A stretch of DNA of 64,000 nt, taken from positions 6,749 to 70,748 of IMG/VR virus record IMGVR_UViG_3300048591_000302; one strand, written 5' to 3'. Below, one piece after another: positions 651 through 33,202 of this stretch. Under the pieces are notes generated by a model that saw only the letters and a program-made list of their open reading frames with translations, made no database searches and had not been told where the DNA came from. Both the position numbers and the translations under genes were made by a program. Each line of letters starts with the position of its first letter. Positions within the stretch are counted from its first letter, which is position 1. Origin of the DNA: a virus.

Positions 651-840
651 CTGCTTCCTCCTTCTCAAAAGTGATTTCGCGTTTCGTCAGTTCCTTGCAA
701 TCCCTGCAACCAAAGATTACAATAACCTTATCAGCGGGTGCTCCAGCATGGAATACCATCATGTTGTCGCTCCCACAAGCATCACACTTGGGCAGTACAT
801 GTTTCACTATCCACCTCAACGGTTTTCGGTCCAACTTCAT
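631..840 (-). CDS. Small zinc-ribbon protein
   Basis: CDAC...CRDC pairs; overlaps neighbours in operon fashion. Confidence 0.55.
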   Translation of the reverse strand: MKLDRKPLRWIVKHVLPKCDACGSDNMMVFHAGAPADKVIVIFGCRDCKELTKREITFEKEEADVPKDN

Positions 841-1012
841 ACCGCGTCATCGTTCCGGTTTCGTCAATCAGTCCAAGTGTCTTGTGACACTTGTCACAAT
901 AGACGCGAACCAGAAACGTTTCCGGCACTTCTGTGTGAAGCATCTCTTGCAGTTCCAGATCATAGATCGATTCAGTTGGAACCTTGTACACAAGTCTGTG
1001 CTTACAACTCAT
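782..1012 (-). CDS. Small hypothetical protein, possibly Zn-binding (CKH...CDKC)
   Basis: ATGA coupling with the upstream stop at 1009. Confidence 0.5.
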   Translation of the reverse strand: MSCKHRLVYKVPTESIYDLELQEMLHTEVPETFLVRVYCDKCHKTLGLIDETGTMTRYEVGPKTVEVDSETCTAQV

Positions 1013-1335
1013 TTGTAGATCTCCAGATTTGTAAGTTGCCATTTACGCCGCACACGTTCGATGAAGGCTTCCCCATATGGTTGCCCATCCTTATACCGGT
1101 ACACCGCACGATTCGGATAGTGTACCACCCCGTTACGACCGGCGACGAACCAGAGTGCTGTAAGGTATCCTTTTGTTGTTGCAATGATTGGGTAATCACC
1201 GGGAAAGCCCATCGCTCTGCGACCGCAATGCCAACACTTGAATCGACCAACGCGACAGTGAATATCATACAACTGTAGAGTCGTATAATCCTCACCGAGT
1301 ATCGAGACCAAGCAATGCTCACACTTCAGTTTCAT
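1009..1335 (-). CDS. Zn-finger protein, DYPI paralog family member 1
   Basis: MKLKCEHC...CWHC...GFPGDYPI...LWFVA; AAGGAG RBS before the ATG at 1335. Confidence 0.65.
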   Translation of the reverse strand: MKLKCEHCLVSILGEDYTTLQLYDIHCRVGRFKCWHCGRRAMGFPGDYPIIATTKGYLTALWFVAGRNGVVHYPNRAVYRYKDGQPYGEAFIERVRRKWQLTNLEIYK

Positions 1336-10515: not shown

Positions 10516-10929
10516 TCACCTCAGATCATAATGCTGGGTTTCGAAATCCAGAGCAGTATCCAGGATATATTGTTGTGTATTCTTGGGCTGTATCTTATCT
10601 TTCGGTATCAACCCGAAGCGATCATTGATTTGCATAATCCGCCGTGTATAGAACTTCCAAGCGTTGAACCGCTTAGTTGGCGAAGCATTCGGGTTAAGAA
10701 GAACCTTCCTATATCGTTGCCACTCAAGAAACACAGCGTGTTCATACGGAGTAAGTCGACCAGTATCGCGCTTCTGTTGAAGACGATACTGGTCGGTCAC
10801 CCACTTCTGATACTGCTCGTTCCAGGGCATTCTCTGATTATAGAATCCCTGGACCGATGCCTCTCCTGCGTTAGCCGCAGATAGGAGAGTCCAAATTAGG
10901 ACCAGTATACAGTTTATTTTGTACATCAC
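10516..10929 (-). CDS. Hypothetical exported protein
   Basis: Hydrophobic N-terminus ending in AANA-G, resembling a signal peptidase I site. Confidence 0.5.
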   Translation of the reverse strand: MMYKINCILVLIWTLLSAANAGEASVQGFYNQRMPWNEQYQKWVTDQYRLQQKRDTGRLTPYEHAVFLEWQRYRKVLLNPNASPTKRFNAWKFYTRRIMQINDRFGLIPKDKIQPKNTQQYILDTALDFETQHYDLR

Positions 10930-11716
10930 ACACCGTTTTGATGTCTTGGATCATGTCTCGGTCAGTAATGCCACCAGAGCACCAGGCGGCAACGCGAGTA
11001 TGAATGCCGTAACCGATGTTAGCGGCAAGCAATTCGACGAGCTTGTCAACTTCACCGCGACAACGAACACGACGAGCGTTGGAGTTCGCAGATGTCCGAG
11101 TGACAACCTTGGAACGAACGCTCCCGTCAGCATTGTTCTCGTGATGGATCTTGAGGCGCTTCGCCAGATCGTACATCTTGTCCTTGTCGTCACGGAGAGA
11201 GTACAAATCACGAACCGAAGCCTGCGAAAGAATGTTCTTGGCTGCCAGTTCCTGAATGTCAACGGGAAGCTTCAGCAAGAGCCAGCGGCATTGAACCCAA
11301 CCACGAGATTTGCCGATCCGATCGGCAACTTCGTATTCGTTCAGACCGGCAGCAAGCAACGCCTCGATGCCTTTGGCTTCTTGGTAGAGCGACAGGGCAC
11401 GACGCTTCAGGTTCTCGGACAGGTTCATGACGCGGGCTTGCGTTTCGTCGATGTCAGTCCGAATGATGCACGGGATGGTCTTCTTGCCAAGCAATTCGTG
11501 CGCTTTGTACCGGCAGTTACCGGCAACGACACGATACTTGTAGAACTTCCCATCGCTTGCCAGTCTCTCAAACGGCTGAATCATGATTGGCTGCATCAGA
11601 CCATTGGCTTCGATGTCCTCAGCCAATTCCTGTACCTCCGACGGGTTGATGACGCCACGACAGTTGAAGGTCGGGTCCGAAATCATTTCTTCGAGTGCGA
11701 TCAGCTTGACTTCCAT
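10871..11716 (-). CDS. ParB/Spo0J-family protein 1
   Basis: ELAEDIEANGLMQPI, VVAGNCRYKA, ENLKR and HTH EVADRIGKSRGWV. Confidence 0.88.
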   Translation of the reverse strand: MEVKLIALEEMISDPTFNCRGVINPSEVQELAEDIEANGLMQPIMIQPFERLASDGKFYKYRVVAGNCRYKAHELLGKKTIPCIIRTDIDETQARVMNLSENLKRRALSLYQEAKGIEALLAAGLNEYEVADRIGKSRGWVQCRWLLLKLPVDIQELAAKNILSQASVRDLYSLRDDKDKMYDLAKRLKIHHENNADGSVRSKVVTRTSANSNARRVRCRGEVDKLVELLAANIGYGIHTRVAAWCSGGITDRDMIQDIKTVCDVQNKLYTGPNLDSPICG

Positions 11717-14615: not shown

Positions 14616-14650
14616 TTAGTGATTAATGATTAACGATTAGTGATTAACGA
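14616..14650. repeat. Imperfect heptamer tandem repeat
   Basis: GATTAAT GATTAAC GATTAGT GATTAAC between parB2 and the SSB-like gene. Confidence 0.75.
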
Positions 14651-14651
14651 A

Positions 14652-15692
14652 TCAGACTTCGACGACCTTCGCCGTGTCAGCGGTGACAGCGACGTTACCA
14701 TTCAACTCGCTCTTCATCTGTTCGAGCTTGGCAACTTCGCGTTCGAGCTTCTTGCGCTTGCGTTCTTCGTCACGCTTGGACGCCGCTTCTTCGAGCGACA
14801 TCTTGCGCTCGTCGAATTTCCGCTTGGCTTCGCCGATGCTCTCCGGATCGAGACGCATACACCACGTCAGGGCGAAGAGGAAGGCTCCGGAGGGATCGGT
14901 GATACTGTTCCGGCTCAGCAGATCGGCAACATCTGCGGTGTTGTTGCGCATGGATTCAATTTCACCCTTGTTGCGCCACGTTGCCACGGTCGGAGGAACG
15001 AACTCTTCCGTTGCGCCACGACCTTCACGCTTCGCCTTGTTCAGCTCGGCGAGACGGCTTTTGATGTTGCCAGCGAACTCGCGGGACGAATCATTGATCG
15101 CCGCTTCCTTGTAGTTCAGCTGTTCTTCCGGCGGCAGATTGGCGAGAGCGAACGCATTGGAGAGCTTGATGACGCCTTCGTCGACCAGGGTCGCGATATC
15201 TTCGTGGAGCTTGATGAGCTTCATCCGTTCCTTCACGAACGCCTCGGAGACGGCGAGCATTTTCGCCATTTCTTTGGTGGTCATGAGCGGATCGGCTGCC
15301 ATGATTCGCACCATCTGCTGCGTGAATTGCGCCGGAAGGGTGTCGATGCGGTGATGGTTCGCCATGAACTGGTCAACGAGTGCTTCGTTGTCGCTGATGT
15401 TACGAATCAGCGCCGGGACTTCGGACAGACCAGCCATCTTGCTTGCCGTGAAACGTTGCAGACCGTCACAGAGGATGTACTTGCCTTCGATTGCGTCAAT
15501 CTCGATTTCCTGGCTTTCCTTGAGCTGAACCGCGTCGTCCTGCGTCATCGGACGAACCGAGAGCGCATTGATCAGACCACGGGCAGCAATGGAATCGACG
15601 AGTTCTTGGAACTTTTCGGTTTCCTTGTTGACCGGTCTGAGAGCGACTGGAGATTCGTAAATCTCCCCGAGTTTGAGCATTTTCTGCTCCAT
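14652..15692 (-). CDS. ParB-family protein 2 with C-terminal coiled coil
   Basis: ELVDSIAARGLINAL, ILCDGLQRFTA, HTH KEMAKMLAVSEAFV and a charged tail; GGAGG RBS. Confidence 0.85.
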   Translation of the reverse strand: MEQKMLKLGEIYESPVALRPVNKETEKFQELVDSIAARGLINALSVRPMTQDDAVQLKESQEIEIDAIEGKYILCDGLQRFTASKMAGLSEVPALIRNISDNEALVDQFMANHHRIDTLPAQFTQQMVRIMAADPLMTTKEMAKMLAVSEAFVKERMKLIKLHEDIATLVDEGVIKLSNAFALANLPPEEQLNYKEAAINDSSREFAGNIKSRLAELNKAKREGRGATEEFVPPTVATWRNKGEIESMRNNTADVADLLSRNSITDPSGAFLFALTWCMRLDPESIGEAKRKFDERKMSLEEAASKRDEERKRKKLEREVAKLEQMKSELNGNVAVTADTAKVVEV

Positions 15693-15717
15693 TTCGTGCC
15701 TCCGTATTTTGGAGTTT

Positions 15718-15834
15718 GGTTATGTAATCTGGGCGTTTTACCCAGATATCCGGTAGGTTATGTAATCTCGCAGATTACGCAAATCTCAGTATCAGTATTC
15801 CCAGATTACGAGATTATGCGTAATCTCATAATCT
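15718..15834. promoter_or_regulatory. Array of GATTAY/RTAATC operator-like motifs (left arm)
   Basis: GGTTATGTAATC twice plus the near-palindrome AGATTACG AGATTATG CGTAATCT CATAATCT at 15803-15834. Confidence 0.65.
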
Positions 15835-16007
15835 ACAGTTTGTTCCGCGACATAAGGCAGTAAATAGCGGTTTGCGTCAATTCCTATCGGTCTAACTTGA
15901 ACGGTATGGCGTTTACTGCCTTTATCCATATTCATATATAGGTCGGCTTTCAAGTTGAAATTTGACGGCTAAAAACAAAAGACAAGAAAAATTTTCGACT
16001 CTATCAT

Positions 16008-20943: not shown

Positions 20944-21941
20944 AAGTCACATACGTCAAAAGCAAAGTTGCATATTGGAACCAGACATTTCTGGATCTGA
21001 TGGAGATGGCTGACATTACGGTCGATGATGTCTCCTACGATTATGCTCTCGCAATCAACACCTATCGGAATCACTATAAGGTTCCTACCAAGGTGAAATG
21101 GATCACGTGGGTGCAGGACCATCCATGTGAGGTCGAGGAACAAGCGGAACTGTTCAACGAACATACGGATGACGTAATCATCGGTTATGAAAGTCCGTAT
21201 AAAGCCTTGGGCTTCGACAGCAAGAGGCTTTACAGCATTCCGTTTCCAGTCGGTCGCAGGTTGTTCAAGCCGAAGACAATCTCTAAGAGGTACGATATCG
21301 TCTTCGTGAGCAACAAGGGACTTTATGTCTACAATCATGCACCATTGCAGCTGTATAAGGTGATCAAGAAGCTCGAAGCTATCTATGCTGAGACTCTGAA
21401 ACCGTTGACAGACAAAGAGATTCATGAAATCTGCATGAACGATAATGAGTTCTATACATACTACAATACGCATGTGAAGGTTGATCTGCGTGAGAAGTTC
21501 ATGTCGCTGTTCATCTATTGGCTTGTTTGCGAGTGTCTCTATCGTCAAGCGATGGTAGATCATTGCATCAAGCAGGGCTTCAGTGTTCACGTCTGGGGTG
21601 TAGGTTGGAAGAAGAATCCCAAATACTGCCATATCGCTTCTGATATGGTCAGTGAAGGTGATTTGGTTCATGCCTACAGCCTTGGCAAGTATGTTTTGCA
21701 CCTGAACAGTCTTGGTGGTGTACATCAACGTCCGATCGAAGCACTCTATTGTGGATGTAAGGTGCTGAACCCAATGCAGGGATCAGACCATCCAGAAACG
21801 TTCGATGCAGATGCACACTATACGGAGACAAAACGGCGTATTCAAACACAATTTCACAACATCGTGAATCATGTACCATGTTCTGCACAACTGTGGGACA
21901 TCATGGACGTGAGTAAATACACTTACAAGGAGATACTATGA
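20940..21941 (+). CDS. GT-B glycosyltransferase (CgeB / Glyco_trans_1_2-like)
   Basis: YDIVFVS, VHVWGVGW and AYSLGKYVLHLN...HQRPIEALYCG; ATGA start at 20940. Confidence 0.7.
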   Translation: MKVTYVKSKVAYWNQTFLDLMEMADITVDDVSYDYALAINTYRNHYKVPTKVKWITWVQDHPCEVEEQAELFNEHTDDVIIGYESPYKALGFDSKRLYSIPFPVGRRLFKPKTISKRYDIVFVSNKGLYVYNHAPLQLYKVIKKLEAIYAETLKPLTDKEIHEICMNDNEFYTYYNTHVKVDLREKFMSLFIYWLVCECLYRQAMVDHCIKQGFSVHVWGVGWKKNPKYCHIASDMVSEGDLVHAYSLGKYVLHLNSLGGVHQRPIEALYCGCKVLNPMQGSDHPETFDADAHYTETKRRIQTQFHNIVNHVPCSAQLWDIMDVSKYTYKEIL

Positions 21942-22438
21942 TCGTCGGATTTACAGGATTCAAACAGAGCGGCAAAGATACTGCCGCGCTTGCATTGTAT
22001 GAGATGGGTTACGAAAAGGTAAGCTTTGCACATCCAATCTACCAGATTGCAGCCATCTTCGATTTCGATCTTGACGACAAGAACGCTGTTCATCCTGTTT
22101 GGAGGATCACGCTGAGACAGTTCCTTCAGGTGGTTGGGACTGAAATGTTCCGTAACATAATGGATGATGACGTTTGGATCAAGCACATGGAGCATATTCA
22201 TGGCCTCCCTGAACGGGCGGTGGTCACGGACGTTCGTTTCCCTAATGAAGCGGCCTTCATCCGGCGCAAGGGTGGGATCGTGATTCGGATTTGTCGTGAT
22301 ACAAAGGAATACGATTGTCACGCTTCAGAAATGGGGCAATCAAGTATCACACCTGATTACACAATCAACAATAATGGTTCGGTGGAAGAACTACATCAAG
22401 CAGTAAGGAGTATTCTCGATGCGCGCAATATTGATTGA
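21938..22438 (+). CDS. Deoxynucleoside monophosphate kinase
   Basis: GFKQSGKDT P-loop, SFAHPI, RQFLQVVGTE, DVRFPNE and HASE. Confidence 0.92.
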   Translation: MIVGFTGFKQSGKDTAALALYEMGYEKVSFAHPIYQIAAIFDFDLDDKNAVHPVWRITLRQFLQVVGTEMFRNIMDDDVWIKHMEHIHGLPERAVVTDVRFPNEAAFIRRKGGIVIRICRDTKEYDCHASEMGQSSITPDYTINNNGSVEELHQAVRSILDARNID

Positions 22439-22757
22439 TTCCGTCAAGCAGGAAGTTCGTGAGATCGATCTCGATATCGAGAAGATCGCTGAAACAATTG
22501 GCTGTGAACTGTTCACAATCGTTGGGTACAAGCCTTACACATTCTTCGTGGATGATGAAGGCTTGCTCAAAGACCCGAGGAATTGGTTCACTATTGTCGG
22601 TGCTGGCTACCAGTGGTTCGCTGGTAATGGTCTCATTCTCAATGGAACCTACGACTGCGAGCCATGCACTATGTCCCTTGATGAAGCGAAGAAACTGATT
22701 GTTTTCGCCCGTGGTCGGAATCTAACGATCCCAAGTGTACAGGTATATTCACTATGA
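22419..22757 (+). CDS. DUF3846-like protein
   Basis: FVDDEGLLK...FAGNGLI pattern. Confidence 0.6.
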   Translation: MRAILIDSVKQEVREIDLDIEKIAETIGCELFTIVGYKPYTFFVDDEGLLKDPRNWFTIVGAGYQWFAGNGLILNGTYDCEPCTMSLDEAKKLIVFARGRNLTIPSVQVYSL

Positions 22758-23185
22758 AATGGCACGAATATTTTCTGAATGTCTGTGCGGTTGTTGCTGG
22801 TAAAAGCAAAGATGAATCAACCAAAGTGGGAGCAGTCATCGTTGGACCAGATCATGAAATCCGGTCAACCGGTTACAACGGCTTCCCACGCGGTGTCAGA
22901 GAGCTGAAGGATCGGCAACATCGACCGTTGAAGTACCGTTACACTGAACATGCTGAGCGCAATGCTATTTACCAAGCGGCGAGAGCTGGAGTATGCACAA
23001 ACAAGTGTACGCTCTATGTGAATTCGTTGCCTCCGTGCGCAGATTGTGCCAGAGCAATTATCCAAGCAGGTATTGTTGAAGTCTACTTTGCCTGCGCTGA
23101 TGTACCAGAACGCTGGTATGATGATTGGATAATCAGTCAAACAATGTTCAAAGAAAGTGATGTGATTTGTGAAAACATTTTCTGA
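22754..23185 (+). CDS. dCMP deaminase
   Basis: SKD..TKVGAVIV, STGYNGFPRG, HAERNAI and PCADC. Confidence 0.93.
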   Translation: MKWHEYFLNVCAVVAGKSKDESTKVGAVIVGPDHEIRSTGYNGFPRGVRELKDRQHRPLKYRYTEHAERNAIYQAARAGVCTNKCTLYVNSLPPCADCARAIIQAGIVEVYFACADVPERWYDDWIISQTMFKESDVICENIF

Positions 23186-23501
23186 GTATCAAGCAGCAGC
23201 CGCGACAACCGCAATCTACCCCAAGACTGGGATGCTCGGTCTGACATATGTCGCTCTTGGTCTTGGCGAGGTTGGTGAAGTACAGGGTAAGATCAAGAAG
23301 ATCATTCGTGACAATGCCTGTGTAATCACGGATGAGGCAAAGAAAGAAATTGGCAAGGAGCTTGGTGACGTGCTTTGGTATCTTGCCAACATGTGTACGG
23401 AGCTTGATCTTGACTTCGGAGAGATTGCACAATCAAATCTTGATAAGTTGGCATCAAGAAAAGAACGTGGCGTCCTTCAAGGGAGCGGAGATAACCGATG
23501 A
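23169..23501 (+). CDS. MazG-like nucleoside triphosphate pyrophosphohydrolase
   Basis: GEVGEV..KIKK, KELGDVLWY and NLDKL..R.ERG..GSGDNR. Confidence 0.9.
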   Translation: MKTFSEYQAAAATTAIYPKTGMLGLTYVALGLGEVGEVQGKIKKIIRDNACVITDEAKKEIGKELGDVLWYLANMCTELDLDFGEIAQSNLDKLASRKERGVLQGSGDNR

Positions 23502-23577
23502 AGCGCTTAGGCAGAAAGCAGTCTCAAGAACTCAAAGATATGAAGGAAAAATGGAATGAAAAAAATGGGAGGCTATA

Positions 23578-23727
23578 ATGATTGATTATTATACCGTTAA
23601 GAAGCAAGAAGAATTCGATAAGGTTACGAAACCTAAGCAGTACAAACGTATCAAGCCGAGGGTTGATCGTAACGGGCCTTGTCCGTGTGGTAGTGAACTG
23701 AAAGCAAAGAAGTGTTGTTACAAATGA
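23578..23727 (+). CDS. 49-aa SEC-C motif protein (absent from the ORF track)
   Basis: Hand translation MIDYYTV...RVDRNGPCPCGSELKAKKCCYK; GGGAGG RBS. Confidence 0.75.
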   Translation: MIDYYTVKKQEEFDKVTKPKQYKRIKPRVDRNGPCPCGSELKAKKCCYK

Positions 23728-23906
23728 TTACATTAATGTGCACCTTAGTCTCGGTATGTCTTTCGAGCGCAAGCTTCATCGGACTCATGTACTTCGGTTT
23801 CGGGATCGAAATCCAAAACATTTGGGCATTCTTCGTGCTATTCGCGGCTTGGAAAGTGTTTTCTAATCTGGCACGCGCTTTCGCGAAGAGTGTGAAGGTG
23901 GAATGA
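23724..23906 (+). CDS. Small two-TM membrane protein
   Basis: Two hydrophobic stretches; ATGA-coupled. Confidence 0.5.
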   Translation: MITLMCTLVSVCLSSASFIGLMYFGFGIEIQNIWAFFVLFAAWKVFSNLARAFAKSVKVE

Positions 23907-24205
23907 TGCCATTTTATCACAGGGAATTAGTTTTGGTCGAAGCCATTCAATTGAGATGGGCGACTTGGAACGAGATTTGTGCGTTCCTTGGAGACACAAT
24001 CAATGATAGTAATCCAGGATTCTTTGGACCAGCCTCAGATACGTGCGGAGAATGTGGTCCTGATTACATAAATATTAAGATTCCTACGCCTATAGGTGAA
24101 CAGATAGTCCAGCACCGTGATTACGTAATCCAGGGCGTGAATGGTGAGTTCTATGCTTGCAAGCCAGATGTCTTTGCTGAGATATATGAGAAGGTGGGAT
24201 CATGA
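23903..24205 (+). CDS. Conserved phage hypothetical protein
   Basis: VEAIQ...DYVIQGVNGEFYACKPDVFAEIYE, a widespread phage motif. Confidence 0.7.
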   Translation: MMPFYHRELVLVEAIQLRWATWNEICAFLGDTINDSNPGFFGPASDTCGECGPDYINIKIPTPIGEQIVQHRDYVIQGVNGEFYACKPDVFAEIYEKVGS

Positions 24206-24429
24206 ACTACTATACACCAGAAACCCACGAATGTTTGGATAATCAAATGAATCAGTGCAGTATTGTAACAAACTATGTATGCAGCCGATTGTGGAACAAG
24301 TGTAAATATTGCAAACTTGACGAAGATGGATGTTGCATTTACATGGGCTATACAGGCGAATGCCGTAATTCTGAAGCAAGATGTGATCAAAAGGAACACG
24401 AACATGAGCGTAAGATATATGTGCCGTGA
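24202..24429 (+). CDS. Cys-rich small protein
   Basis: Many Cys residues; ATGA-coupled. Confidence 0.45.
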   Translation: MNYYTPETHECLDNQMNQCSIVTNYVCSRLWNKCKYCKLDEDGCCIYMGYTGECRNSEARCDQKEHEHERKIYVP

Positions 24430-24659
24430 TTTCGAACGCTGTCCATATTGGAAGTGTGATCTGATTAACAATTTCCTTTGTGGATGGAGAAATCACAAGA
24501 GTGAATGTTCAAACCCACAGGCACACGCAAGATGTGAACAGATTATTGAGTATAAATGTCCCGGTGAAGAAGGATGCGCGTACAAAGAGGGCAACGATTG
24601 TGTGTGCAAAGTGAGAAGCGGTCCTCGTAGCGGTAACTGTACAAACAAGAAGGCACAAC

Positions 24660-24989
24660 ATGAAATGGCAAGAACTGAGAAAATGGCGGCGCAAGGGTAA
24701 GGATTTCCTGATTGAAGTAACACACTATGATGAGTCGATCTGGAACATCCACCTGTATCTCTATCCAGATCATCCTCTTTTCAAGGCTGATCGTAGAGCG
24801 TTCGATCAGGCACCGGGACATTGTTACATTTCATTGTTTCAGCGGAATCGACTCAACAGCGATACTGATACGTCTTTACAGGTCGGTTGGGACTACAATC
24901 ACGAAGGCGATGATTACTATCGTGATCTTCGTGATCCGGGACCAATACTCGCGGATGCTGACAAACTGTATGATTGGGTAATCAAATGA
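24660..24989 (+). CDS. Hypothetical phage protein
   Basis: WNIHLYL.PDHPLF...VGWDYNHEGD motif. Confidence 0.6.
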   Translation: MKWQELRKWRRKGKDFLIEVTHYDESIWNIHLYLYPDHPLFKADRRAFDQAPGHCYISLFQRNRLNSDTDTSLQVGWDYNHEGDDYYRDLRDPGPILADADKLYDWVIK

Positions 24990-25205
24990 TTTCTTTTGAT
25001 GAGAGCGAAATCAGCAAAGAGGAATTTGAAAAATTAATTGCTGATAATGATGTGTTCAAAATTCATTCAGGCGATGCTTGTCTTTGTATTCCCAAAGCAA
25101 GCGTCACGTTTCAAGGTATGGTTGACCTTCATCTGTTGGATAAATTGATTAAACAAGCAAAAATGTCAAGCGATATTGTAGAACTTTCAAACTTAGGATA
25201 ATCAA

Positions 25206-25844
25206 ATGACAGAAGAGGGCCCTTTTACTTATTTTCCTAACGAGTGTAATGAAGGTAAAACAATGAAACCATGTCCGTTCTGCAAGTCAAGCGATCTGAA
25301 GTACTACTCAGGATGGCCGAAGAAGATCAAGGAAGCTGAGAAGTTACAACATCTGATGCGTAAGCCTACAATAACGTGTAGAGGCTGTGGCATCGAGTTC
25401 AGTTCAGGTGTATTCGGTTGCGGCTACAATGATAAGTACGCCTATGATGTCACGGTACAAGTCTGGAACACCCGCGTCTTTGAGAGCCATGACCATCTTG
25501 TAGCCGAGAACAAACAGCTGCACGATATGATCTATGATTGTCAAACCCAGATTCACGGATACAAACGCAAGCTTGAAACCTGCGTCATCCACGAGAATGT
25601 TTTGCTGAACGTCGCACAGCTCGATGTCTGGTATGCTTCGATAGCCAAAGGCTACAAAGCTTGCAGGAAGTGCGGTGCGCCGGTAAGAGGAAACGGTTGC
25701 TGCATATTCTGTGACGCGTGGGACTCCGGAACTGAATTTCGCTGGATCAACGCAAGTGCTGATTCAGTGGTCGCGTTCAAGAATGAACTGGACTGGCTTC
25801 TTGCTAAGTACGGTGCTAAGATTGATGGTGTAATCAAAATGTAA
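25206..25844 (+). CDS. Lar-like (restriction alleviation) zinc-ribbon protein with C-terminal extension
   Basis: KPCPFC...CRGC...VWNTR, then a coiled coil and CRKC...CIFC. Confidence 0.55.
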   Translation: MTEEGPFTYFPNECNEGKTMKPCPFCKSSDLKYYSGWPKKIKEAEKLQHLMRKPTITCRGCGIEFSSGVFGCGYNDKYAYDVTVQVWNTRVFESHDHLVAENKQLHDMIYDCQTQIHGYKRKLETCVIHENVLLNVAQLDVWYASIAKGYKACRKCGAPVRGNGCCIFCDAWDSGTEFRWINASADSVVAFKNELDWLLAKYGAKIDGVIKM

Positions 25845-26042
25845 GGAGCTTATGTATGAATGACTATGTTTGGTTTGAAAACGGTTGCATCAATTTCTTC
25901 AATACTGATGGTGAACGGTTTGTTGTTATTCTTGCAAATGTTTTTGAGTGCAGATTCGTTTGTGAAGATAATGATGTATTACTAAAAGTTACCTTCACCG
26001 ATAATGCAACAGTCCACTACAAGCTTAAAAGGATGAACAAAG

Positions 26043-26762
26043 ATGAGCAAATCTAAGCACTATGAGATGTCCAAACTTCATTTTGAAGATTTGACACGGC
26101 AGGTAGAGTTCAACAGCACAAGTGGATGGCGGCCTGTAGGCTTGCCAACATTCAAAGAGCATGAGAATTACAGGTTCAAGCCACCGCACGATATCGAGGG
26201 TAATAAGATGTTCGTTGGACCATGGTACGTGAAGGACAAGACACCATTCAGGATCACGCGACTCGATATCAGCGCAACATACAACGATTACAACTTCAAA
26301 TCTGTGACTATCTGCTATTGGAACGGTTCGAGCGGTGACGTGTATCCATGGGAGATCATGGGTGCGCATAAAGTGATTATTGAATCAAAGCACAAAGAAA
26401 TTATGGCTTGGCATTATGCTGATCCATCCTTGCCTATATTCTACCGTGCTAAAAATGGTCTTGCTTGGCAAGTATGTGGCAGACCTATAAGCTTCCGTGA
26501 GGATTGGGAATACAAGCTCGGTGATCCTTTGGACGCCCATGGTAATCTATTCAGGGTAGGTGAATGCTATACGTGCAACGGTTCGACATTTATTTTACTG
26601 GATGTTGATAGCCGCAGAGCTAAAGTATTGAATAGCGATGAATCGTTGTATGATTTGCCAATCATAGAAATTAAGGGTGCTGTTCCGTGCTACGAAAATC
26701 GTGTACTCAGCGCGTTCATCAAAATCTTATTTAGGAGTTACTATGAAAAGCCGACACAGTGA
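26043..26762 (+). CDS. Hypothetical protein with two copies of a repeated module
   Basis: H..(LIM)..H..D...W....P..F.E...Y....D..GN...VG..Y present twice. Confidence 0.6.
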   Translation: MSKSKHYEMSKLHFEDLTRQVEFNSTSGWRPVGLPTFKEHENYRFKPPHDIEGNKMFVGPWYVKDKTPFRITRLDISATYNDYNFKSVTICYWNGSSGDVYPWEIMGAHKVIIESKHKEIMAWHYADPSLPIFYRAKNGLAWQVCGRPISFREDWEYKLGDPLDAHGNLFRVGECYTCNGSTFILLDVDSRRAKVLNSDESLYDLPIIEIKGAVPCYENRVLSAFIKILFRSYYEKPTQ

Positions 26763-27213
26763 ATTGATCAGAGAATATTATGAGGACATAACTCAGGATG
26801 TCTGGGGACGAGTAAGCTGTTCAGACTCTTGGCGCCTGTGCGTTAAGCCAATAGCCTTCAATGAAGACTATGAGTATGAGCTTGGTGCGCTTAGAGATAA
26901 ACATGGTGAAGTGATTGAGATAGGTGGGTGCTACGTACTAAATGGTCGAGTATTCGTTGTTCGATTCCTAAAAGACCGTGAAGTACATATCCAGTATCTG
27001 GATAATAACTACAGAGTCAGTTTTAGTGTAAAACAGATGCTGGAAGCTGAACCTTGTCGGAATATCGGTACTCTGAAATATGCTATCGGCAGATTACAGA
27101 ATCAGATAGCTATACTCGAATATCTTACTGATGTTCACAGACCGTTCGAAGGTGAAATCGGACCATGTAACGATAAAGTAAAGGTGAACGCATGCACAAA
27201 AATGCCAGCGTAG
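26743..27213 (+). CDS. Paralog carrying the same module
   Basis: AGGAG RBS; RHSELI...WRLCVKPIAFNEDYEY...DKHGEVIEIGGCY. Confidence 0.6.
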   Translation: MKSRHSELIREYYEDITQDVWGRVSCSDSWRLCVKPIAFNEDYEYELGALRDKHGEVIEIGGCYVLNGRVFVVRFLKDREVHIQYLDNNYRVSFSVKQMLEAEPCRNIGTLKYAIGRLQNQIAILEYLTDVHRPFEGEIGPCNDKVKVNACTKMPA

Positions 27214-27686
27214 TCAAACATTGGGTCGTAGACACGAATCGTCGGGTCGAGTTCTTAAGACAAGATGAAACATGGCGACCACTAACAGGGGTCACATTAC
27301 ATGACTTCGAATATGCGTTAGCAAGATTTGCTTACCCAATCGACAGTAATTGGCGCGAGATGGTGGTCGGAAATGAATACTATAATGATGCATTTGGCTA
27401 CTTCATTTTCCACGGTCGTGTAGATGCTGCAAGCTTTTCCATTGGTCAGCTACACAAGGCACAATGGGAGCTTGATGGAGCCAAACCGAAGTGTGAAATG
27501 TTTGGTGAAATGGAATATATTCCTCACCTGATACCGGAAGGCTTCCGGGTGCTTACAGCTGAGGAACAGTTTAACAAGGGTGACTATTTTTTGAAGAGTT
27601 GGTGTGGTTCAACCTACTGGGAAAAATTTACTCTAGGTGGGTCCACCATTGGCAATGCAATAGCAATAAGAAAGGTGAACACATGA
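27192..27686 (+). CDS. Divergent paralog carrying the same module
   Basis: VEF..WRP...FEY...PIDSNWREMVVGNEY. Confidence 0.55.
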   Translation: MHKNASVVKHWVVDTNRRVEFLRQDETWRPLTGVTLHDFEYALARFAYPIDSNWREMVVGNEYYNDAFGYFIFHGRVDAASFSIGQLHKAQWELDGAKPKCEMFGEMEYIPHLIPEGFRVLTAEEQFNKGDYFLKSWCGSTYWEKFTLGGSTIGNAIAIRKVNT

Positions 27687-27850
27687 CAGTCAGGGAGATC
27701 GAGGTTCTTACAACCTATGTGTGTGAGCATTGTGGTCACATTCATAAAAAACAATTTCAGATTCGTTGCAATGCTGATTGGTTACGCAATAGCATTCCAC
27801 CAAAGATGGAATGCCCTAAATGTAAGGAGGCGTATGAAAGAAGCAATTGA
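27683..27850 (+). CDS. Small zinc-ribbon protein
   Basis: CEHC...CPKC; ATGA start. Confidence 0.55.
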   Translation: MTVREIEVLTTYVCEHCGHIHKKQFQIRCNADWLRNSIPPKMECPKCKEAYERSN

Positions 27851-28325
27851 TCACGCAATCAAACTAAGGCTTATCCTAATTGAGGCTGGCGCAACAATGC
27901 CCTATGCGTTCGATGAAACACCGCTCGAAGAACCGGCAAGCTGGTTCTTCGGTGAGCTGTTACATCAACATACAGTTGCAATAGAGCTTGCAACCTTCAT
28001 GCACCAGATTCTCTATCGACTCACTGGCGAGATTGTTGATGCAAGTTCGATGACCAAAACTGTTGATAGTGACTTCTTCGTGGTCCAGCTCAAGAACGAG
28101 ATCGAGCTGATCCTTGAGGAAGCGAACCGGACCAAGTACATTGCTCAACGGATTCGCGACAGCAGCGGTCAAATCTTTGGTATTGCTTTCAGCGACGAAC
28201 CAAATAATCCTGAATCAATTGTTAGCTCAATCTATGACAAGATGAATATGGTCAAGGAAATTTATATAGAGATTACACGAATGATTAAGGAAACAATACA
28301 ACTATATGAGGAACAGAGACCATGA
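27834..28325 (+). CDS. Hypothetical helical protein
   Basis: AAGGAGG RBS before the ATG at 27834. Confidence 0.55.
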   Translation: MKEAIDHAIKLRLILIEAGATMPYAFDETPLEEPASWFFGELLHQHTVAIELATFMHQILYRLTGEIVDASSMTKTVDSDFFVVQLKNEIELILEEANRTKYIAQRIRDSSGQIFGIAFSDEPNNPESIVSSIYDKMNMVKEIYIEITRMIKETIQLYEEQRP

Positions 28326-29086
28326 AGCAGAGCGTTAAGAAAGTCGAGATACGTAACCCCTACGAGAAAATCGAGTATTGCGGTCGTATCTGTTACAAGA
28401 GTGAACCGAAGGGTGATGCAGTTGGCTTCATCAAGAAGCGTATTGCCAGCGGTCATGAAAGCATTTTGGAACATGTGTATATCACTGTTTACGTGGACAC
28501 TGATACACCGATTTTCCTCGATGACAAATTCCTGACTATCGGTACACGTTCTGTATCTGGCAATATCCGGTCATTCAGGAACTACTGTAAACGCCGTAAG
28601 GACTATGCCATGGCACAGTACCTGCTCTCCATACTGCGTGGTAGTGCATACAATCATTTCTTCGAGGATATACCATGTAAAGACAAGACAGCATCCGGTG
28701 GTATCGTGTTGATGAAGCAGGAAACCTATCATTGCGTAACCAATCGTGGTATTAGTCACGAACTGGTGAGGCACCGGCAGATGTCCTTCAGTCAAGAGAG
28801 TACTCGATATATCAAGTACGATGAAATCGAGTATATTGATCCACTCACAGACCATCCGGCTTTGGGTCGTGCGCTTAAGGCTTGCTCCAAGGCTTACAAG
28901 GAACTGATCCGTGGTGGGATACCACCGCAGATTGCGCGAGCAGTACTGCCCAACGATTTGAAGACCGAGATCATTATCACAGGTACGCCACAAATGTGGG
29001 ATTACGTAATCAATCTGCGCAGTCAGCCAGATTGTCACCCTCAAATGCAAGAACTAATGAAGGAGATCAAAACATGTCGGAGCTGA
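28322..29086 (+). CDS. thyX: Flavin-dependent thymidylate synthase
   Basis: GRICY, GHESILEH, RGISHELVRHRQMSFSQESTRY and ARAVLP. Confidence 0.95.
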   Translation: MKQSVKKVEIRNPYEKIEYCGRICYKSEPKGDAVGFIKKRIASGHESILEHVYITVYVDTDTPIFLDDKFLTIGTRSVSGNIRSFRNYCKRRKDYAMAQYLLSILRGSAYNHFFEDIPCKDKTASGGIVLMKQETYHCVTNRGISHELVRHRQMSFSQESTRYIKYDEIEYIDPLTDHPALGRALKACSKAYKELIRGGIPPQIARAVLPNDLKTEIIITGTPQMWDYVINLRSQPDCHPQMQELMKEIKTCRS

Positions 29087-29280
29087 ACGGAACAATAAAT
29101 CTTAAAGAGATCGCAGACCTTGTCTGCAAGAAAAAACAAGACCTTGCTAATGGCATCTACAAATGTCCAATTTGCGGAGCAAGGGTGAATCCCGAAACAG
29201 ATTTCGATGATGAACGCTCGAAGAAGGAGTTCTTCATCTCGTCCCTGTGTCAAGAATGTCAAGATAAGGTTTTCGGCTAA
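29074..29280 (+). CDS. Small zinc-finger protein
   Basis: CPIC...F.DE.SKKEF.IS.LCQECQD; AAGGAG RBS. Confidence 0.65.
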   Translation: MSELNGTINLKEIADLVCKKKQDLANGIYKCPICGARVNPETDFDDERSKKEFFISSLCQECQDKVFG

Positions 29281-29651
29281 TGGCTGTCATCTTGACAATA
29301 GACAAGGTGAAGTTCGCAGTTGATGGTGCCCTGTGGATCAGAGAAGGTGAGAAGCTGCATATCGATGCTACGCTTGCACTGATGCTGCCACAGGACAACA
29401 CCCTCTGGATGGACTACATCAGTAAGTTCGCTGATCTGATGAGCCAATCAGATGCGCTAACCAACTTCACCATAGTGCGCGTTGGTCAAGAGATCATGGT
29501 GACGCTACCAGATAACATGTGTACGCGATATCTGCTCAATGGACTGTATATCGCGGATGATGAGTTCATCTTCACTACGTTACGTCCATTGGAAATGATG
29601 ATCTGTCTATCCACTGGACGCAGAAACGCCGCTTTGCGCGGCGTTGGTTAA
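29280..29651 (+). CDS. Hypothetical protein, last gene of the plus-strand block
   Basis: TAATG overlap with the upstream stop. Confidence 0.55.
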   Translation: MAVILTIDKVKFAVDGALWIREGEKLHIDATLALMLPQDNTLWMDYISKFADLMSQSDALTNFTIVRVGQEIMVTLPDNMCTRYLLNGLYIADDEFIFTTLRPLEMMICLSTGRRNAALRGVG

Positions 29652-29654
29652 GTG

Positions 29655-29783
29655 TTACTTGGGAACCTTGAAGTTGAGTCTTTCTTTGAACTCTTCTTTC
29701 TTTCCTTTGTTCCAGTTGGATACGGGTCGAATATAGCCGCACACGCGGCTATACACTTCGCACTTCTGACCACACTTAGCCAT
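29655..29783 (-). CDS. 42-aa stand-alone glycyl-radical domain resembling the class III ribonucleotide reductase (NrdD) C-terminus (absent from the ORF track)
   Basis: Hand translation MAKCGQKCEVYSRVCGYIRPVSNWNKGKKEEFKERLNFKVPK; RVCGY glycyl-radical loop and WNxGKxxEFxxR tail; start overlaps the upstream stop by 8 nt. Confidence 0.85.
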   Translation of the reverse strand: MAKCGQKCEVYSRVCGYIRPVSNWNKGKKEEFKERLNFKVPK

Positions 29784-30441
29784 CGACTACGCTTTCTGGT
29801 GTTATGTATTCATGTTTCTGTCCCTTAATTACCTTATTGAAAGGTACGATCTGATTCTCCAATCCAGAATATACGCTCCTGAGTATGTGCTCACCATATA
29901 TGCTTGAATGATAAGCTTTCTCGCGCTTTGCGTGGTAGTCACAACAAAGGAAACGTATATTCTTGGATTGCAAGAATCTGCAAAGAGCAACAGCAACGCA
30001 GATGCATGGCATTGATGGCCCGTACACGCCAAGCAGAGGTTCCTGTATCATGATCAGGTTCGTGTAACCGGTATAGCATGTCCAAGCTCTCGGCGATAGT
30101 AGCATCGTTGCTCGACAGCAATAGGCTCTATCACGAAGGGATGCGTCAATCTGTATCGCGAATAGCGGTCCATCGGCAACGGTGTTTACTTGATGCACAC
30201 TATTGTTCAAACAGATGGTCATGTGACCAGCCAAGTGTTCAGCGCGCAAGTATTCGAGCGAGGCACCGCTACCAACGATGTTGATTACTTGTCCTTGGTA
30301 AAGATCAACCAAAGAAAGGAAAGCGTTATTAATTGCACTAGAAATAGGTACATAATATCTCCTTCTGTAATCAACAGGCACGTACTCTTTAGTCGTGCCT
30401 TCTTTCTTTAGTTGTTTTAGACTTTTAAACATGCGATACAT
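29776..30441 (-). CDS. DUF115 / Maf-like glycosyltransferase-fold protein
   Basis: INIVGSGASL...TICLNNS...AVALCRFLQSKNIRFLCCD resembles the G.GPSL...GxD pattern of DUF115/GT42-like proteins. Confidence 0.55.
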   Translation of the reverse strand: MYRMFKSLKQLKKEGTTKEYVPVDYRRRYYVPISSAINNAFLSLVDLYQGQVINIVGSGASLEYLRAEHLAGHMTICLNNSVHQVNTVADGPLFAIQIDASLRDRAYCCRATMLLSPRAWTCYTGYTNLIMIQEPLLGVYGPSMPCICVAVALCRFLQSKNIRFLCCDYHAKREKAYHSSIYGEHILRSVYSGLENQIVPFNKVIKGQKHEYITPESVVDG

Positions 30442-30692: not shown

Positions 30693-31281
30693 TCATCACG
30701 TCGAGCCGAATCATGCGAAGCATATTCCGGATTTCCTCATCTGCGCACTCGTCCTCCGCTTCCGAAAGTTCTCCGACCAGTTTCCACTTCGGATAGTTGC
30801 CACTCTCCTTGAGTATTTCAGTTATGCTCTCGAAGAGATTGCTCAAGCGATTGGTCCGAGCCAGCATCATGAGTGGTTGAAGTTGCTTACGTAATCCTTC
30901 CGGAGCCTGTTTCATGGCTTCTTGAAGGTTCTTCATGAGAATGTCCTCGAAAGCATAACCAGAGATCATCTCTCCAGCTACGATACGTGCCTTGGACAGA
31001 TGCTTATACACGCAGTCGAGACACGGCTCACGCCGGATGTTGATTTCCGTTTGTCCTGGATGATGAGGGGGCTTGTTATCAAGCATTTGTTTCAGCGCGG
31101 AGGGAAGATCAAGCTTCAACAGTTCCTTTTTATCAGTGTTCTTGAATAGAGGAAGGATTTCCGTCTGAAGGAAGCCGCAGCATTTCTTGCTGGCCTCCAG
31201 CTGATCGATGAAGCCGGGTACAAGCTTTTCGATGTCGCTCTCTACGAGTTTCAACTTTTTGTAATTGTCGTTCTCGCTCAT
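30595..31281 (-). CDS. Hypothetical protein with CC and CxxC motifs
   Basis: KKCCG, REPCLDCVYKHL and GELSEAEDEC; ATGA-coupled. Confidence 0.6.
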   Translation of the reverse strand: MSENDNYKKLKLVESDIEKLVPGFIDQLEASKKCCGFLQTEILPLFKNTDKKELLKLDLPSALKQMLDNKPPHHPGQTEINIRREPCLDCVYKHLSKARIVAGEMISGYAFEDILMKNLQEAMKQAPEGLRKQLQPLMMLARTNRLSNLFESITEILKESGNYPKWKLVGELSEAEDECADEEIRNMLRMIRLDVMNGQAVDKEMLDEIEGKIQNVEQRRQVLHSEGA

Positions 31282-32243
31282 TCTGTCCTCCAGGAATTAT
31301 TCTGAATGCTGTCTTCGATGGTTTTGAACGCCTCGAGATCACCTAGTCCACACTCGAACAGACACGGTTCCCTTTCCCATTTGATCCGGGCATGTATTGC
31401 CTGCTTCTTGAAACGTTCACGAAATTTCTCATCTGTAAGACACTTGCGACAACGTTCGTGATCAACCAAGATTCCGCAACGTGGGCAGCCATACTGCTGC
31501 AAGCTCTTAAGAGAAATCTTACTCCCGTCTTCAAACTCTCCCTTCTTCAGATGTTTATATAAATCGATGGCTTTTTCCCAATGTTCGCTGACAATCCTTT
31601 TATGTCTGCTACGATTCAGCTTGACGTTGATTCTTCTGCGGGCTTTCTTGATGTCAAAGGGAACACCGACGAATTCAGCAACACGCTTTATTTGTTCCAG
31701 CGGCTCGGAGACAAGCTTTTCGTATTCCACAACCAGCGTCGGTTTCTGATACTTCTGCAACCATGCACACATCGGTATGGCTACGTTCAAATAGAACTCA
31801 GGACCATTTACCGTTTCGTTGTTCATCTCTCTAAGAGGAAATTTCCTGGTCATTCTCTCCTGGCTTGTGGCGACGGCTTTCGGATGTCTGACCATCAGGA
31901 TGATCTTGTCCACATACTTCGGGTCGGTATGAATGATGCCTCTGGCAACGATCTTGACCGCCGTATTGTGTTCATTGATTAGACGATCAAGACGCTCCGC
32001 ATCCATCCAACGATAGAACATTCCCTGGACAGCATATATATCCTCCCAGAATCCGTTCGGATTCATGTCCTTCTTGATGTTTGCTTTCCTTTTGGGACTC
32101 AAATACTGCATACAGGCTTCTTCCGGTGTCTTCGGTTTTCTTTCTTGTGGAAAGGCGTCTCCTACGATCTTCAGGCCACCGGACCTACAGATATCCATCA
32201 TCAGACTGGTGCCGCTCCTCGAAACTCCTGATACGATAATCAT
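31278..32243 (-). CDS. PAPS-dependent sulfotransferase with Cys-rich C-terminus
   Basis: 5'-PSB loop SGVSRSGTSLMM, NPNGFWE, 3'-PB ILMVRHP..V..S and VEYEKLVSEP. Confidence 0.85.
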   Translation of the reverse strand: MIIVSGVSRSGTSLMMDICRSGGLKIVGDAFPQERKPKTPEEACMQYLSPKRKANIKKDMNPNGFWEDIYAVQGMFYRWMDAERLDRLINEHNTAVKIVARGIIHTDPKYVDKIILMVRHPKAVATSQERMTRKFPLREMNNETVNGPEFYLNVAIPMCAWLQKYQKPTLVVEYEKLVSEPLEQIKRVAEFVGVPFDIKKARRRINVKLNRSRHKRIVSEHWEKAIDLYKHLKKGEFEDGSKISLKSLQQYGCPRCGILVDHERCRKCLTDEKFRERFKKQAIHARIKWEREPCLFECGLGDLEAFKTIEDSIQNNSWRTE

Positions 32244-33202
32244 ATCACTTCTCCCCAACTAACTCTTATACCGCTTGTGAAACGAACGAAACCCGGTTGT
32301 ATTGTAGCGTTCACTTGTGCCAGATCATTGCTTCGGCTAGCCGTAGATGCAGGAGACAGGTAGCTTGCAGGCCACACCGTTGATGTTGTATAGGTCGGAG
32401 CCGGATATGCCGGAGCACAAGCATTCTTCTTTCGATAATACTTCTTGTACCAATAATTTTGTATGTGGACTGAATGAACATTTGTATTATAGACATAGGC
32501 TGAATCAGGGCTGGTGCCTGCATTGTATCTGCTTTTATTACTGTTCCAGGCTGCAACTTGGTCAGGAGACATGACACCGTTTACAGCTGTTCCAGACCAA
32601 TACCAATTAAGCAATCCTGAGTAGTCAGCCCCTGTCCTTGCCACCATTTCAACGACCTGCGACGGTCCATATCTATGTGATCCTGTGTATATTCTTTGAA
32701 ATTTGGCAAAGGTTCTTTTAGACCGCGAACCTTGCCACTCATACACCGTAATTACATCAGAACCGGAGGTGTATTTAAATGTTCCGGTCCCTGAATTGTT
32801 ATTTGATAGTGTCTCACAATTTGTACGTTCATCGCAGTAGACACATAGGTCTTTTGTTTCTCCATTTTCCCAAATACAGACGAAATGTTCAAATCGACAT
32901 AGACTGTCGGAATAATACTTCAACATGGGTTGAAAGAACATGAGGACCATGCAATCATCATAAGGAGCCGTCCAATCGACGGTGATGGGTATTTTTCGTA
33001 CAGCACCGCAATTACGGCCGCAAGTGCAGCCAGGACGATCACATTTGTTCAAATAAGTGTCAAAACCCAGATTCTCTACCAGAAAAAATTTGTCGTCTGT
33101 TTCCTTCACAGAAAATCCGAAGTTGAATGGGTTGGTCGGATACCGATTTGGCATATCCTTACAGTTAATGGCTCCTTTTTCGTAACGGATAACATTATTC
33201 AT
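32240..33202 (-). CDS. Putative minor tail or virion protein
   Basis: Directly follows tail-tip genes; rich in Tyr, Ser, Thr and Cys. Confidence 0.45.
   Translation of the reverse strand: MNNVIRYEKGAINCKDMPNRYPTNPFNFGFSVKETDDKFFLVENLGFDTYLNKCDRPGCTCGRNCGAVRKIPITVDWTAPYDDCMVLMFFQPMLKYYSDSLCRFEHFVCIWENGETKDLCVYCDERTNCETLSNNNSGTGTFKYTSGSDVITVYEWQGSRSKRTFAKFQRIYTGSHRYGPSQVVEMVARTGADYSGLLNWYWSGTAVNGVMSPDQVAAWNSNKSRYNAGTSPDSAYVYNTNVHSVHIQNYWYKKYYRKKNACAPAYPAPTYTTSTVWPASYLSPASTASRSNDLAQVNATIQPGFVRFTSGIRVSWGEVI

Follow-up and report, generated by a model that had tools for sequence, protein, structure and literature searches.

A 42-residue phage copy of the glycyl-radical loop of class III ribonucleotide reductase as a candidate exchangeable radical subunit

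The DNA analysed here, called the window, is a stretch of 64,000 nucleotides which covers bases 6749-70748 of the 70,748-bp virus record IMGVR_UViG_3300048591_000302 of IMG/VR, and the whole record was searched for related functions. On its minus strand the window shows a small open reading frame (ORF), MAKCGQKCEVYSRVCGYIRPVSNWNKGKKEEFKERLNFKVPK, at 29655..29783, which encodes 42 amino acids (aa), has an ATG start and its own stop in the sequence and in the ORF list, and, judged from its sequence, is a free-standing copy of the glycyl-radical loop of NrdD, the class III ribonucleotide reductase (RNR). An earlier note on this DNA had described a hidden ORF of this size, and it is confirmed at these coordinates exactly as described. 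The locus contains the following features.

29655..29783, minus strand: the small ORF, a free-standing glycyl-radical loop corresponding to the C-terminal module of NrdD (ORF list, Pfam NRDD, TIGR02487, core identity)
29736..29738, minus strand: codon of Gly16, the presumed radical glycine in R-V-C-G-Y (sequence; alignment A1)
29772..29774, minus strand: codon of Cys4, aligned with the last zinc-ribbon Cys of NrdD, C-P-x-C-G (sequence; alignment A1)
29776..29783, minus strand: 8-nt overlap ATGGCTAA of the upstream ORF stop and the small ORF start (sequence and ORF list)
29776..30441, minus strand: the upstream ORF, 221 aa, with an MptE-like (DUF115) fold as a lead only (structure comparison)

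The ATG of the small ORF lies within the final codons of the 221-aa upstream ORF, and translational coupling of the two would fit the overlap between the stop of one and the start of the other. The small ORF is the final ORF of a minus-strand block that starts at the terminase. A convergent plus-strand ORF, 29280..29651, is the last of its own block, and 3 bases separate its stop from that of the small ORF. The small ORF had been called the last gene of the virion operon, which is right in that it ends the terminase-led block and otherwise doubtful, since the four ORFs directly upstream (a sulfotransferase, two unknowns and the MptE-like lead) are not recognisable virion proteins.

The Pfam family NRDD (PF13597) matches the small ORF with an E-value of 1.8e-12 and 47.2 bits (cut-off 26.2), over profile positions 526-562 of 562. 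TIGR02487 (NrdD) matches with an E-value of 3.7e-12 over positions 545-580 of 581, and the ORF stays far below the whole-protein cut-off of this family (326 bits) because the tail alone is present. PHROG 487 (NrdD-like) is matched with an E-value of 4.9e-6. Of the two profiles that the earlier note had named, NRDD and Gly_radical, only the first applies: NRDD is the sole family that Pfam gives at E up to 10, with no match to PF01228 Gly_radical. When aligned with the solved T. maritima NrdD (4COI/4U3E), the family profile covers residues 608-644, and Gly16 falls on the glycine of RIVGY. Alignment A1, which contains 40 sequences and is the basis of the statements on residue invariance, shows invariant columns at C4, R13, G16, P20, W24, N25, G27, K28, E31 and R35, and Gly16 of R-V-C-G-Y is the residue that we take to bear the radical. 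The proposal that the ORF encodes a class III RNR glycyl-radical loop is thus borne out by Pfam NRDD, TIGR02487, A1 and the alignment to the T. maritima structure. The four-ligand zinc ribbon is incomplete: the last ligand position (C4) alone is present and it is conserved, being Cys in 70 of the 73 viral orphan copies described below. The C8 column is variable, with a majority of T in copies adjoining an NrdD body and of C in orphans. The remaining three ligand positions (C, H, C) are found at the ends of split NrdD bodies, and the ligand roles of these C-terminal metal-site residues are presumably those known from T4 NrdD. Since the sole NRDD match in the 70,748-bp genome spans profile positions 525-562 and is without a barrel, the small ORF is, on its profile match, a module of NrdD and not an NrdD enzyme.

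In bacteria, the best 80 of 590 confirmed genomic loci were classified by script. Full-length NrdD is found in 51 of them, a truncated body followed by a small ORF within 2 kb in 13, a full-length NrdD with an extra small ORF in one, and an orphan small ORF, with no body within 8 kb, in 15. One locus classed by the script as full-length (L120) is also split, judging by the end of its body, and makes the fourteenth split locus. The split nrdD lineages are Lentisphaeria, Victivallales, a Verrucomicrobia metagenome-assembled genome (MAG), Thermoguttaceae, some Desulfuromonadales and Halanaerobium, and in them the separate radical-loop ORF has 41-60 aa. The split bodies stop at NRDD profile position 525-533 and end in '...SICPVHGYIPGEHxxCP[LH]...stop', whereas full-length enzymes go on as '...CPxCGxxxEVYSRVVGY', which places the break between the third and fourth C-terminal metal-site ligand positions. 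Body and small ORF are separated by some 20 to 220 nt, share a frame at some loci and differ in frame at others, and often have several stops between them; this variety rules out read-through, introns and single sequencing errors. An origin of the split by assembly error, intron, intein or recoding is rejected on the same features and on its presence at 14 loci in different assemblies. The gene order was annotated with Pfam in three operons.

L086, Verrucomicrobia MAG: body with ATP-cone and NRDD 1-525, small ORF, NrdG-like Radical_SAM plus Fer4_12
L096, Victivallis vadensis MAG: body with ATP-cone and NRDD 1-525, small ORF, NrdG-like Radical_SAM plus Fer4_12
L155, Halanaerobium saccharolyticum: body 1-533, NrdG, small ORF

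None of the five split-nrdD genomes searched whole contains a full-length NrdD, and the catalytic Cys pair is invariant in an alignment of 12 split and 25 full-length bodies, so the split enzymes look functional only if the peptide works in trans. The earlier note had stated that similar short ORFs occur beside some bacterial nrdD genes. Their presence near nrdD is found in the genomic loci examined; what has to be refined is the nature of the pair, since the neighbouring nrdD is itself truncated and the small ORF would be its radical subunit and not an add-on, and action in trans is more plausible because of this truncation. In a sample of 101 genomes of the phylum containing Lentisphaeria, 68 have NrdD and at least 14 of these the split form. 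Two loci show further arrangements. On a Lentisphaeria chromosome (L084:7818-8538), three tandem copies of the small ORF follow a split body and four more are dispersed (G051); this body has long-read frame errors and was therefore excluded from modelling. In a Paceibacterota MAG (L148:5997-8440), a full-length NrdD is followed by a 94-aa ORF with a second radical loop, a possible spare part.

The small ORF has many free-standing relatives. When only proteins of 23-74 aa are considered, a word-indexed search gives 242 matches at E <= 1e-3; all 120 of these that were listed carry PF13597, with identity up to 88%, and the named sources include Lentisphaeria, Victivallaceae and Thermoguttaceae MAGs, with contigs that reach 5.6 Mb. 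Searched exhaustively with HMMER, 1.84 billion protein representatives give 3376 matches at E <= 1e-3, and among the best 150 of them 148 have 192 aa or less and two are full-length NrdD. A Cys directly before the Gly, as in the window ORF, is found in 52 of 73 viral orphans, 13 of 16 body-adjacent copies, 11 of 15 bacterial orphans and one of 59 full-length NrdDs. The start M-x-K-C-G at the fourth zinc-ligand position is common to the window ORF and the split-type bacterial peptides, and the ATG is kept at the same residue across lineages. The 29-residue core of the window ORF shows a mean identity of 82% to body-adjacent copies and 78-79% to orphans, versus 72% to the tails of full-length NrdD. 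On the Cys before Gly and on these core identities, the window ORF is placed by sequence as a member of the free-standing clade and not as a recent scrap of a whole nrdD. Three relatives (P0001, P0121 and P0122) show an internal duplication of the RVCGY...WNKGK stretch, and these are either real tandem duplications or assembly artefacts. Some other relatives run in frame from the radical loop, without a stop, into a hydrophobic stretch, a lipobox-like L-x-G-C and about 100 further residues; these lipoprotein-like fusions are P0123, P0125, P0129, P0156, P0206 and P0227 among the proteins and L005, L011, L029 and L085:7992-8459 among the loci.

In viruses, the best 80 of 442 tblastn-confirmed IMG/VR stretches contain 73 small ORFs and seven full-length NrdDs. 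NRDD searches of 50 corresponding whole viral records found an NrdD body in two and none in 48; eight of the nine viral records that are at least 90% complete are without it, and 18 of the 50 are classified as proviruses. The isolated phage context, which had been put forward as the novelty, is therefore not rare, being that of the small ORF in 73 of 80 loci, with the body absent from 48 of 50 records. One of the two records with a body, of 187 kb (G038), shows a split NrdD body (profile 1-525) at 80959-82536 and a small ORF at 151615-151722, 70 kb apart. Among 50,697 GenBank phage records seven match, none as an isolated small ORF: two of them (H1 and H3) were inspected and are full-length, and H2 and H4-H7 are full-length by annotation.

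In 24 of the 73 viral loci the small ORF lies in a replication/recombination module, between a Sak4-like protein and a DUF669 single-stranded DNA-binding protein (SSB). The order of this module is exonuclease VIII-like protein, Sak4-like AAA_24, small ORF, DUF669 SSB, RusA and helicase (e.g. L021:4406-7214 and L038:6001-6841). A conserved in-frame 'peptide' upstream of many viral copies was discarded, since it is the 3' end of the Sak4-like gene in another frame. In two distant relatives of this phage (L039 and L058) the small ORF lies at the corresponding end of the operon. The gene immediately before it in L058 is a homologue of the 221-aa gene with 25% identity, and the sulfotransferase, primase, Dam and deoxynucleoside monophosphate (dNMP) kinase of this phage have homologues in L039. 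The cores of the viral copies (67 unique, 29 codons) show a mean proportion of synonymous differences (pS) of 0.87, which is saturated, and a mean proportion of nonsynonymous differences (pN) of 0.19. The median ratio of nonsynonymous to synonymous rates (dN/dS) is 0.13 across the 516 of 2211 viral-core pairs with a finite dS. By these substitution measures the viral copies are under purifying selection, and none of the 73 viral small ORFs has lost the Gly.

The complex of the split body of the Victivallis vadensis MAG (L096) with the phage peptide was modelled from body residues 118-666 with a 37-row alignment and from the peptide with alignment A1. The model scores 0.84 and the best of three controls 0.00; this mark is reached by 58 of 80 solved complexes and two of 110 mismatched pairs, counts that are rough because of the custom alignments. 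Contacts are reproduced between the three runs to at least 91%, with a partner pLDDT (predicted local distance difference test) of at least 83. The tightest contacts join peptide residues 8-11 with body residues 635-639, adjoining the invariant C639/H642/C652, and further contacts join peptide residues 36-38 with body residues 575-583 and 602-603. Body and peptide are in effect the two parts of one split gene, and solved structures of NrdD exist, so the predicted docking may reflect likeness to the native NrdD tail and is no proof of binding.

The remainder of the phage genome shows the following features, assigned by Pfam/PHROG unless indicated.

60504-62144, minus strand: terminase
Minus-strand block: portal
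46670-48067, minus strand: major head protein
38018-44023, minus strand: tape measure, 2001 aa
Minus-strand block: tail proteins
31278-32258, minus strand: sulfotransferase, then two unknown ORFs
29626..29646, no strand assigned: GC-rich 8-bp hairpin (AACGCCGC / GCGGCGTT), weak candidate bidirectional terminator (folding z -2.9 on the minus and -2.5 on the plus strand)
28322-29086, plus strand: ThyX
23169-23501, plus strand: MazG
22754-23185, plus strand: dCMP deaminase
21938-22438, plus strand: dNMP kinase
99..668, minus strand: radical SAM (rSAM; SAM, S-adenosylmethionine) ORF, 189 aa, with CxxxCxxC, GGGEPT and a C-terminal C.C..KPNGD..CGC cluster (sequence and profile matches)

The record has 113-bp direct terminal repeats and a CheckV completeness estimate of 77%. 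In its whole length, the NRDD search gives a single match, the small ORF, and no NrdD body; TIGR02491 (NrdG) matches nothing at E up to 10, and neither a class I/II RNR large subunit (PF02867) nor a tyrosine integrase is found. The absence of an nrdD body and of nrdG, which the earlier note had given for the window, thus extends to the entire record, and a hidden or split nrdD elsewhere in the phage is ruled out by the single NRDD match together with the lack of a class I/II RNR large subunit. The cognate NrdG and the truncated nrdD that neighbour the small ORF in split-RNR operons are both absent from the phage genome. The head-on plus-strand block also holds a primase and a Dam methylase, and its nucleotide genes (21938..29086, plus strand) would, from their annotated functions, need an upstream RNR, of which the genome has none.

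The 189-aa rSAM ORF is not supported as a phage NrdG, having no TIGR02491 match. It reaches 22.7 bits with TIGR02495 NrdG2 (cut-off 131), among 26 weak rSAM families, and has no Fer4_12 match, unlike the host NrdG-like proteins. It shares 27% identity across 79 residues with Victivallis NrdG, in the rSAM core only, and its PHROG names are generic. Its C-terminal Cys cluster has a twitch/SPASM-like look, and 14 relatives of 187-233 aa form its small family. A longer plus-strand ORF, 493..1278, overlaps it and would be favoured by a simple gene caller.

The 221-aa ORF resembles PF01973 MptE-like in a structure comparison (template modelling score, TM, 0.66-0.70), a lead only; it shows no match in Pfam, PHROG or NCBIfam, and a word search for homologues of its protein returned none except itself. 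The sulfotransferase (31278..32258) and the MptE-like lead (29776..30441), both on the minus strand, are likely a sugar-modifying pair closing the tail block. The hairpin at 29626..29646 sits past the small ORF stop, in the 3' end of the convergent plus-strand ORF, where both gene blocks meet, and with its few trailing U it escaped the terminator scan. No Rfam match was found for an RNA element at the small ORF site at E up to 1 (window 28500-31500). Elsewhere, the ParB-like ORFs are two clear and a third weak (10871..11716 and 14652..15692, both minus strand, and L003:556-1578, plus strand), in a phage without integrase, and the ORF 14640..15863 (plus strand), longer than and antisense to 14652..15692, has no family match.

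The reading preferred here, with a probability of roughly 55%, is that the small ORF is a phage-supplied, exchangeable radical subunit for the class III RNR of the host. Its computed basis is the identity of the ORF, its conservation, the natural split and the predicted docking; translation, radical formation, docking in cells and a benefit in deoxynucleoside triphosphates (dNTPs) are the steps that we infer, and they would run as follows. The likely host lineage (Lentisphaeria/Victivallales, or other anaerobes) would have a two-piece NrdD, consisting of a catalytic body of about 660 aa that ends in the C-terminal zinc ribbon and a peptide of about 45 aa with the last ligand and the R-V-C-G-Y loop. 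The phage peptide would be translated during infection, probably coupled to the upstream gene, and host NrdG with SAM would turn Gly16 into a glycyl radical, presumably by the abstraction of the pro-S hydrogen of glycine for which NrdG and SAM are known. The peptide would dock in the barrel of host NrdD, replacing or supplementing the host peptide, held to the body by strand pairing and by a zinc site shared through Cys4. Equally, it may dock into a full-length NrdD with an oxygen-cleaved tail. The radical would then pass to the finger-loop cysteine for reduction of nucleoside triphosphates (NTPs), and sustained NTP reduction would provide substrate for the dNMP kinase, dCMP deaminase and ThyX of the phage, which would carry only the part of the host enzyme that costs least to make and suffers most from oxygen.

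Several observations weigh against this reading. The attribution of a split NrdD to the host rests solely on the similarity of the small ORF (83% with a chromosome and 85% with a MAG protein, both from Lentisphaeria), and a terminase search of 301 genomes of the phylum containing Lentisphaeria gives only matches of 25-32% identity, in seven genomes. The small ORF closes a late-looking minus-strand block, on the strand opposite to the nucleotide genes, and late expression would suit dNTP supply poorly. It is coupled to the MptE-like gene near the sulfotransferase, a sugar-modifying neighbourhood, and the promoter and terminator scan stays at chance level (8 versus 7.7 expected and 4 versus 3.6 expected). 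Several split-NrdD bacteria also carry a full-length NrdD paralogue, so the small ORF would not always be indispensable. The recurrent lipoprotein-like extension of some relatives is not explained by the RNR model.

Three other explanations were weighed. The one that survives best, unlikely as it is, takes the peptide as a repair part only, which would rescue a full-length host NrdD cleaved by oxygen at the glycine, as YfiD/GrcA and T4 Y06I do for pyruvate formate-lyase (PFL), a precedent known from the available sections of a review (PMC13450708). In its favour are the orphan small ORFs in bacteria with full-length NrdD only (G061, G068, G089 and G137), the Paceibacterota locus in which a small ORF directly follows a full-length NrdD (L148) and the proviruses that make up 18 of the 50 viral records. 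The window ORF, however, groups with the split-type peptides by its Cys before Gly and its start at the fourth ligand, and a cleaved NrdD would retain the residues upstream of the Gly, which would clash with residues 1-15 of the peptide unless displaced. This explanation overlaps that of an exchangeable subunit and differs from it in the target state alone.

Somewhat less likely again is a competitor or decoy, that is, a peptide which occupies host NrdG or the NrdD barrel without turnover, and so throttles or re-times dNTP synthesis or titrates the activase from other glycyl-radical enzymes. The predicted docking is as compatible with inhibition as with help, the position at the end of a late-looking block suits it, and helper and competitor are not distinguishable by sequence alone, which leaves the direction of the effect unfixed and in this respect also counts against the preferred reading. 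The residues of a working tail (R13, G16, P20, W24, N25, G27, K28 and E31) are, however, invariant in the 40 sequences of A1, and a dead-end blocker would more simply lose the Gly, which is kept in 73 of 73 viral small ORFs; the phage has dNTP finishing enzymes and no RNR, and 24 of the 73 viral loci have the small ORF in the replication module.

Least probable is that the small ORF has no RNR role and is a carried gene fragment, part of an attachment site that repeats the nrdD 3' end, the partner of another enzyme (e.g. the 189-aa rSAM of the phage) or an N-terminal extension module, for which the rSAM ORF in the same genome (window 99..668), the in-frame lipoprotein-like extensions among relatives and the window neighbours unrelated to RNR could be cited, and against which stand the purifying selection with saturated synonymous sites, the ATG conserved at the same residue across lineages and a genome with terminal repeats and no tyrosine integrase, points on which the attachment-site duplication is rejected, and an rSAM that is 29 kb distant, shares the rSAM core alone with NrdG (27%, 79 residues), has the twitch/SPASM-like Cys cluster and is not found near the small ORF in other viral loci (+-6 kb flanks searched).

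A wider proposal can also be made, which has a little less than an even chance of being right: class III RNR would exist in a modular form, its glycyl-radical cofactor an exchangeable peptide of about 40 residues stapled to the body by an inter-chain zinc site, and many phages and prophages of anaerobes would carry the peptide alone, sustaining host ribonucleotide reduction when the copies of the host are lost to oxygen cleavage or become exhausted after host shut-off. The candidate spare part for class III RNR is found in three settings, namely beside two-piece NrdD, as orphans with full-length NrdD only, and in dozens of phage genomes. If true, it would be the first spare part or detachable radical subunit of a glycyl-radical enzyme outside the formate lyases. 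As an auxiliary metabolic gene it would be of a new, minimal kind and among the smallest known, one which standard gene callers and annotation miss or call a fragment. The radical cofactor of an essential DNA-precursor enzyme would be a replaceable subunit, and body, peptide and NrdG would make a simple system for radical installation and transfer. The proposal is also relevant to how gut and sediment anaerobes tolerate oxygen and to the ways in which their phages obtain dNTPs.

As to the literature, the available text of a June 2026 review gives spare parts as known for formate lyases only and as undetermined for other glycyl-radical enzymes (PMC13450708). In the available portions of two papers on RNR evolution, which mention split class II RNR, a split class III RNR is not mentioned (PMC9669993, PMC4390871). 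In the full-text literature searched, neither a free-standing NrdD radical peptide nor a split class III RNR was found described, and papers or supplements beyond it might describe one. The idea of a spare radical part is known, and a detachable radical subunit of class III RNR with wide carriage by phages is not.

A split RNR of another class is that of Pseudomonas aeruginosa, whose class II enzyme consists of NrdJa and NrdJb according to the accessible parts of two papers (PMC9669993; PMC4520616). The small ORF is like NrdJa/NrdJb in that a C-terminal zinc-finger part of an RNR is a separate polypeptide, as far as the first of these papers describes it (PMC9669993). It is unlike them in that class II uses adenosylcobalamin and its detached part bears no radical. 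To our knowledge, there is no phage-only copy of the detached part of NrdJ. A looser analogy is the psbA gene (D1) of cyanophages, by which a phage supplies a rapidly damaged, high-turnover component of its host; the protein and the process are unrelated to those considered here.

The closest functional precedent is GrcA/YfiD of E. coli and Y06I of phage T4, a spare part for PFL, which the earlier note had named in part (GrcA/YfiD, also carried by T4) and which is real and described in the available sections of the review (PMC13450708). Like these, the small ORF encodes a small free-standing protein with a radical loop and no barrel, for which activation by the cognate activase is expected. 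It would likewise replace the radical domain of a large enzyme, and T4 is the phage-encoded precedent in the sections of the review available (PMC13450708). Unlike GrcA/YfiD, it is in the NRDD family and its target would be class III RNR and not PFL, so that by analogy it may act like GrcA yet is not a member of the GrcA/Gly_radical family. GrcA has 127 aa, compared with 42 aa for the small ORF. A further difference from GrcA/YfiD is that the target enzyme of some hosts lacks its radical domain already at the gene level, and the peptide would there be a subunit and not a repair part alone.

Compared with full-length NrdD, the small ORF has no barrel or ATP-cone, keeps the last zinc ligand only and is a translation unit of its own, and it is like the tails of these enzymes (T4, E. 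coli and T. maritima 4COI/4U3E), that is, their last 37 or so residues, in E-V-Y-S-R-V-x-G-Y and W-N-x-G-K-x-x-E. The small ORFs of bacterial split nrdD lie beside a truncated nrdD and, in the three annotated operons, with an NrdG-like gene, and the phage copy, unlike them, has neither partner; it is like them in its M-x-K-C-G start, its length class, its Cys before the Gly and its 82% mean core identity.

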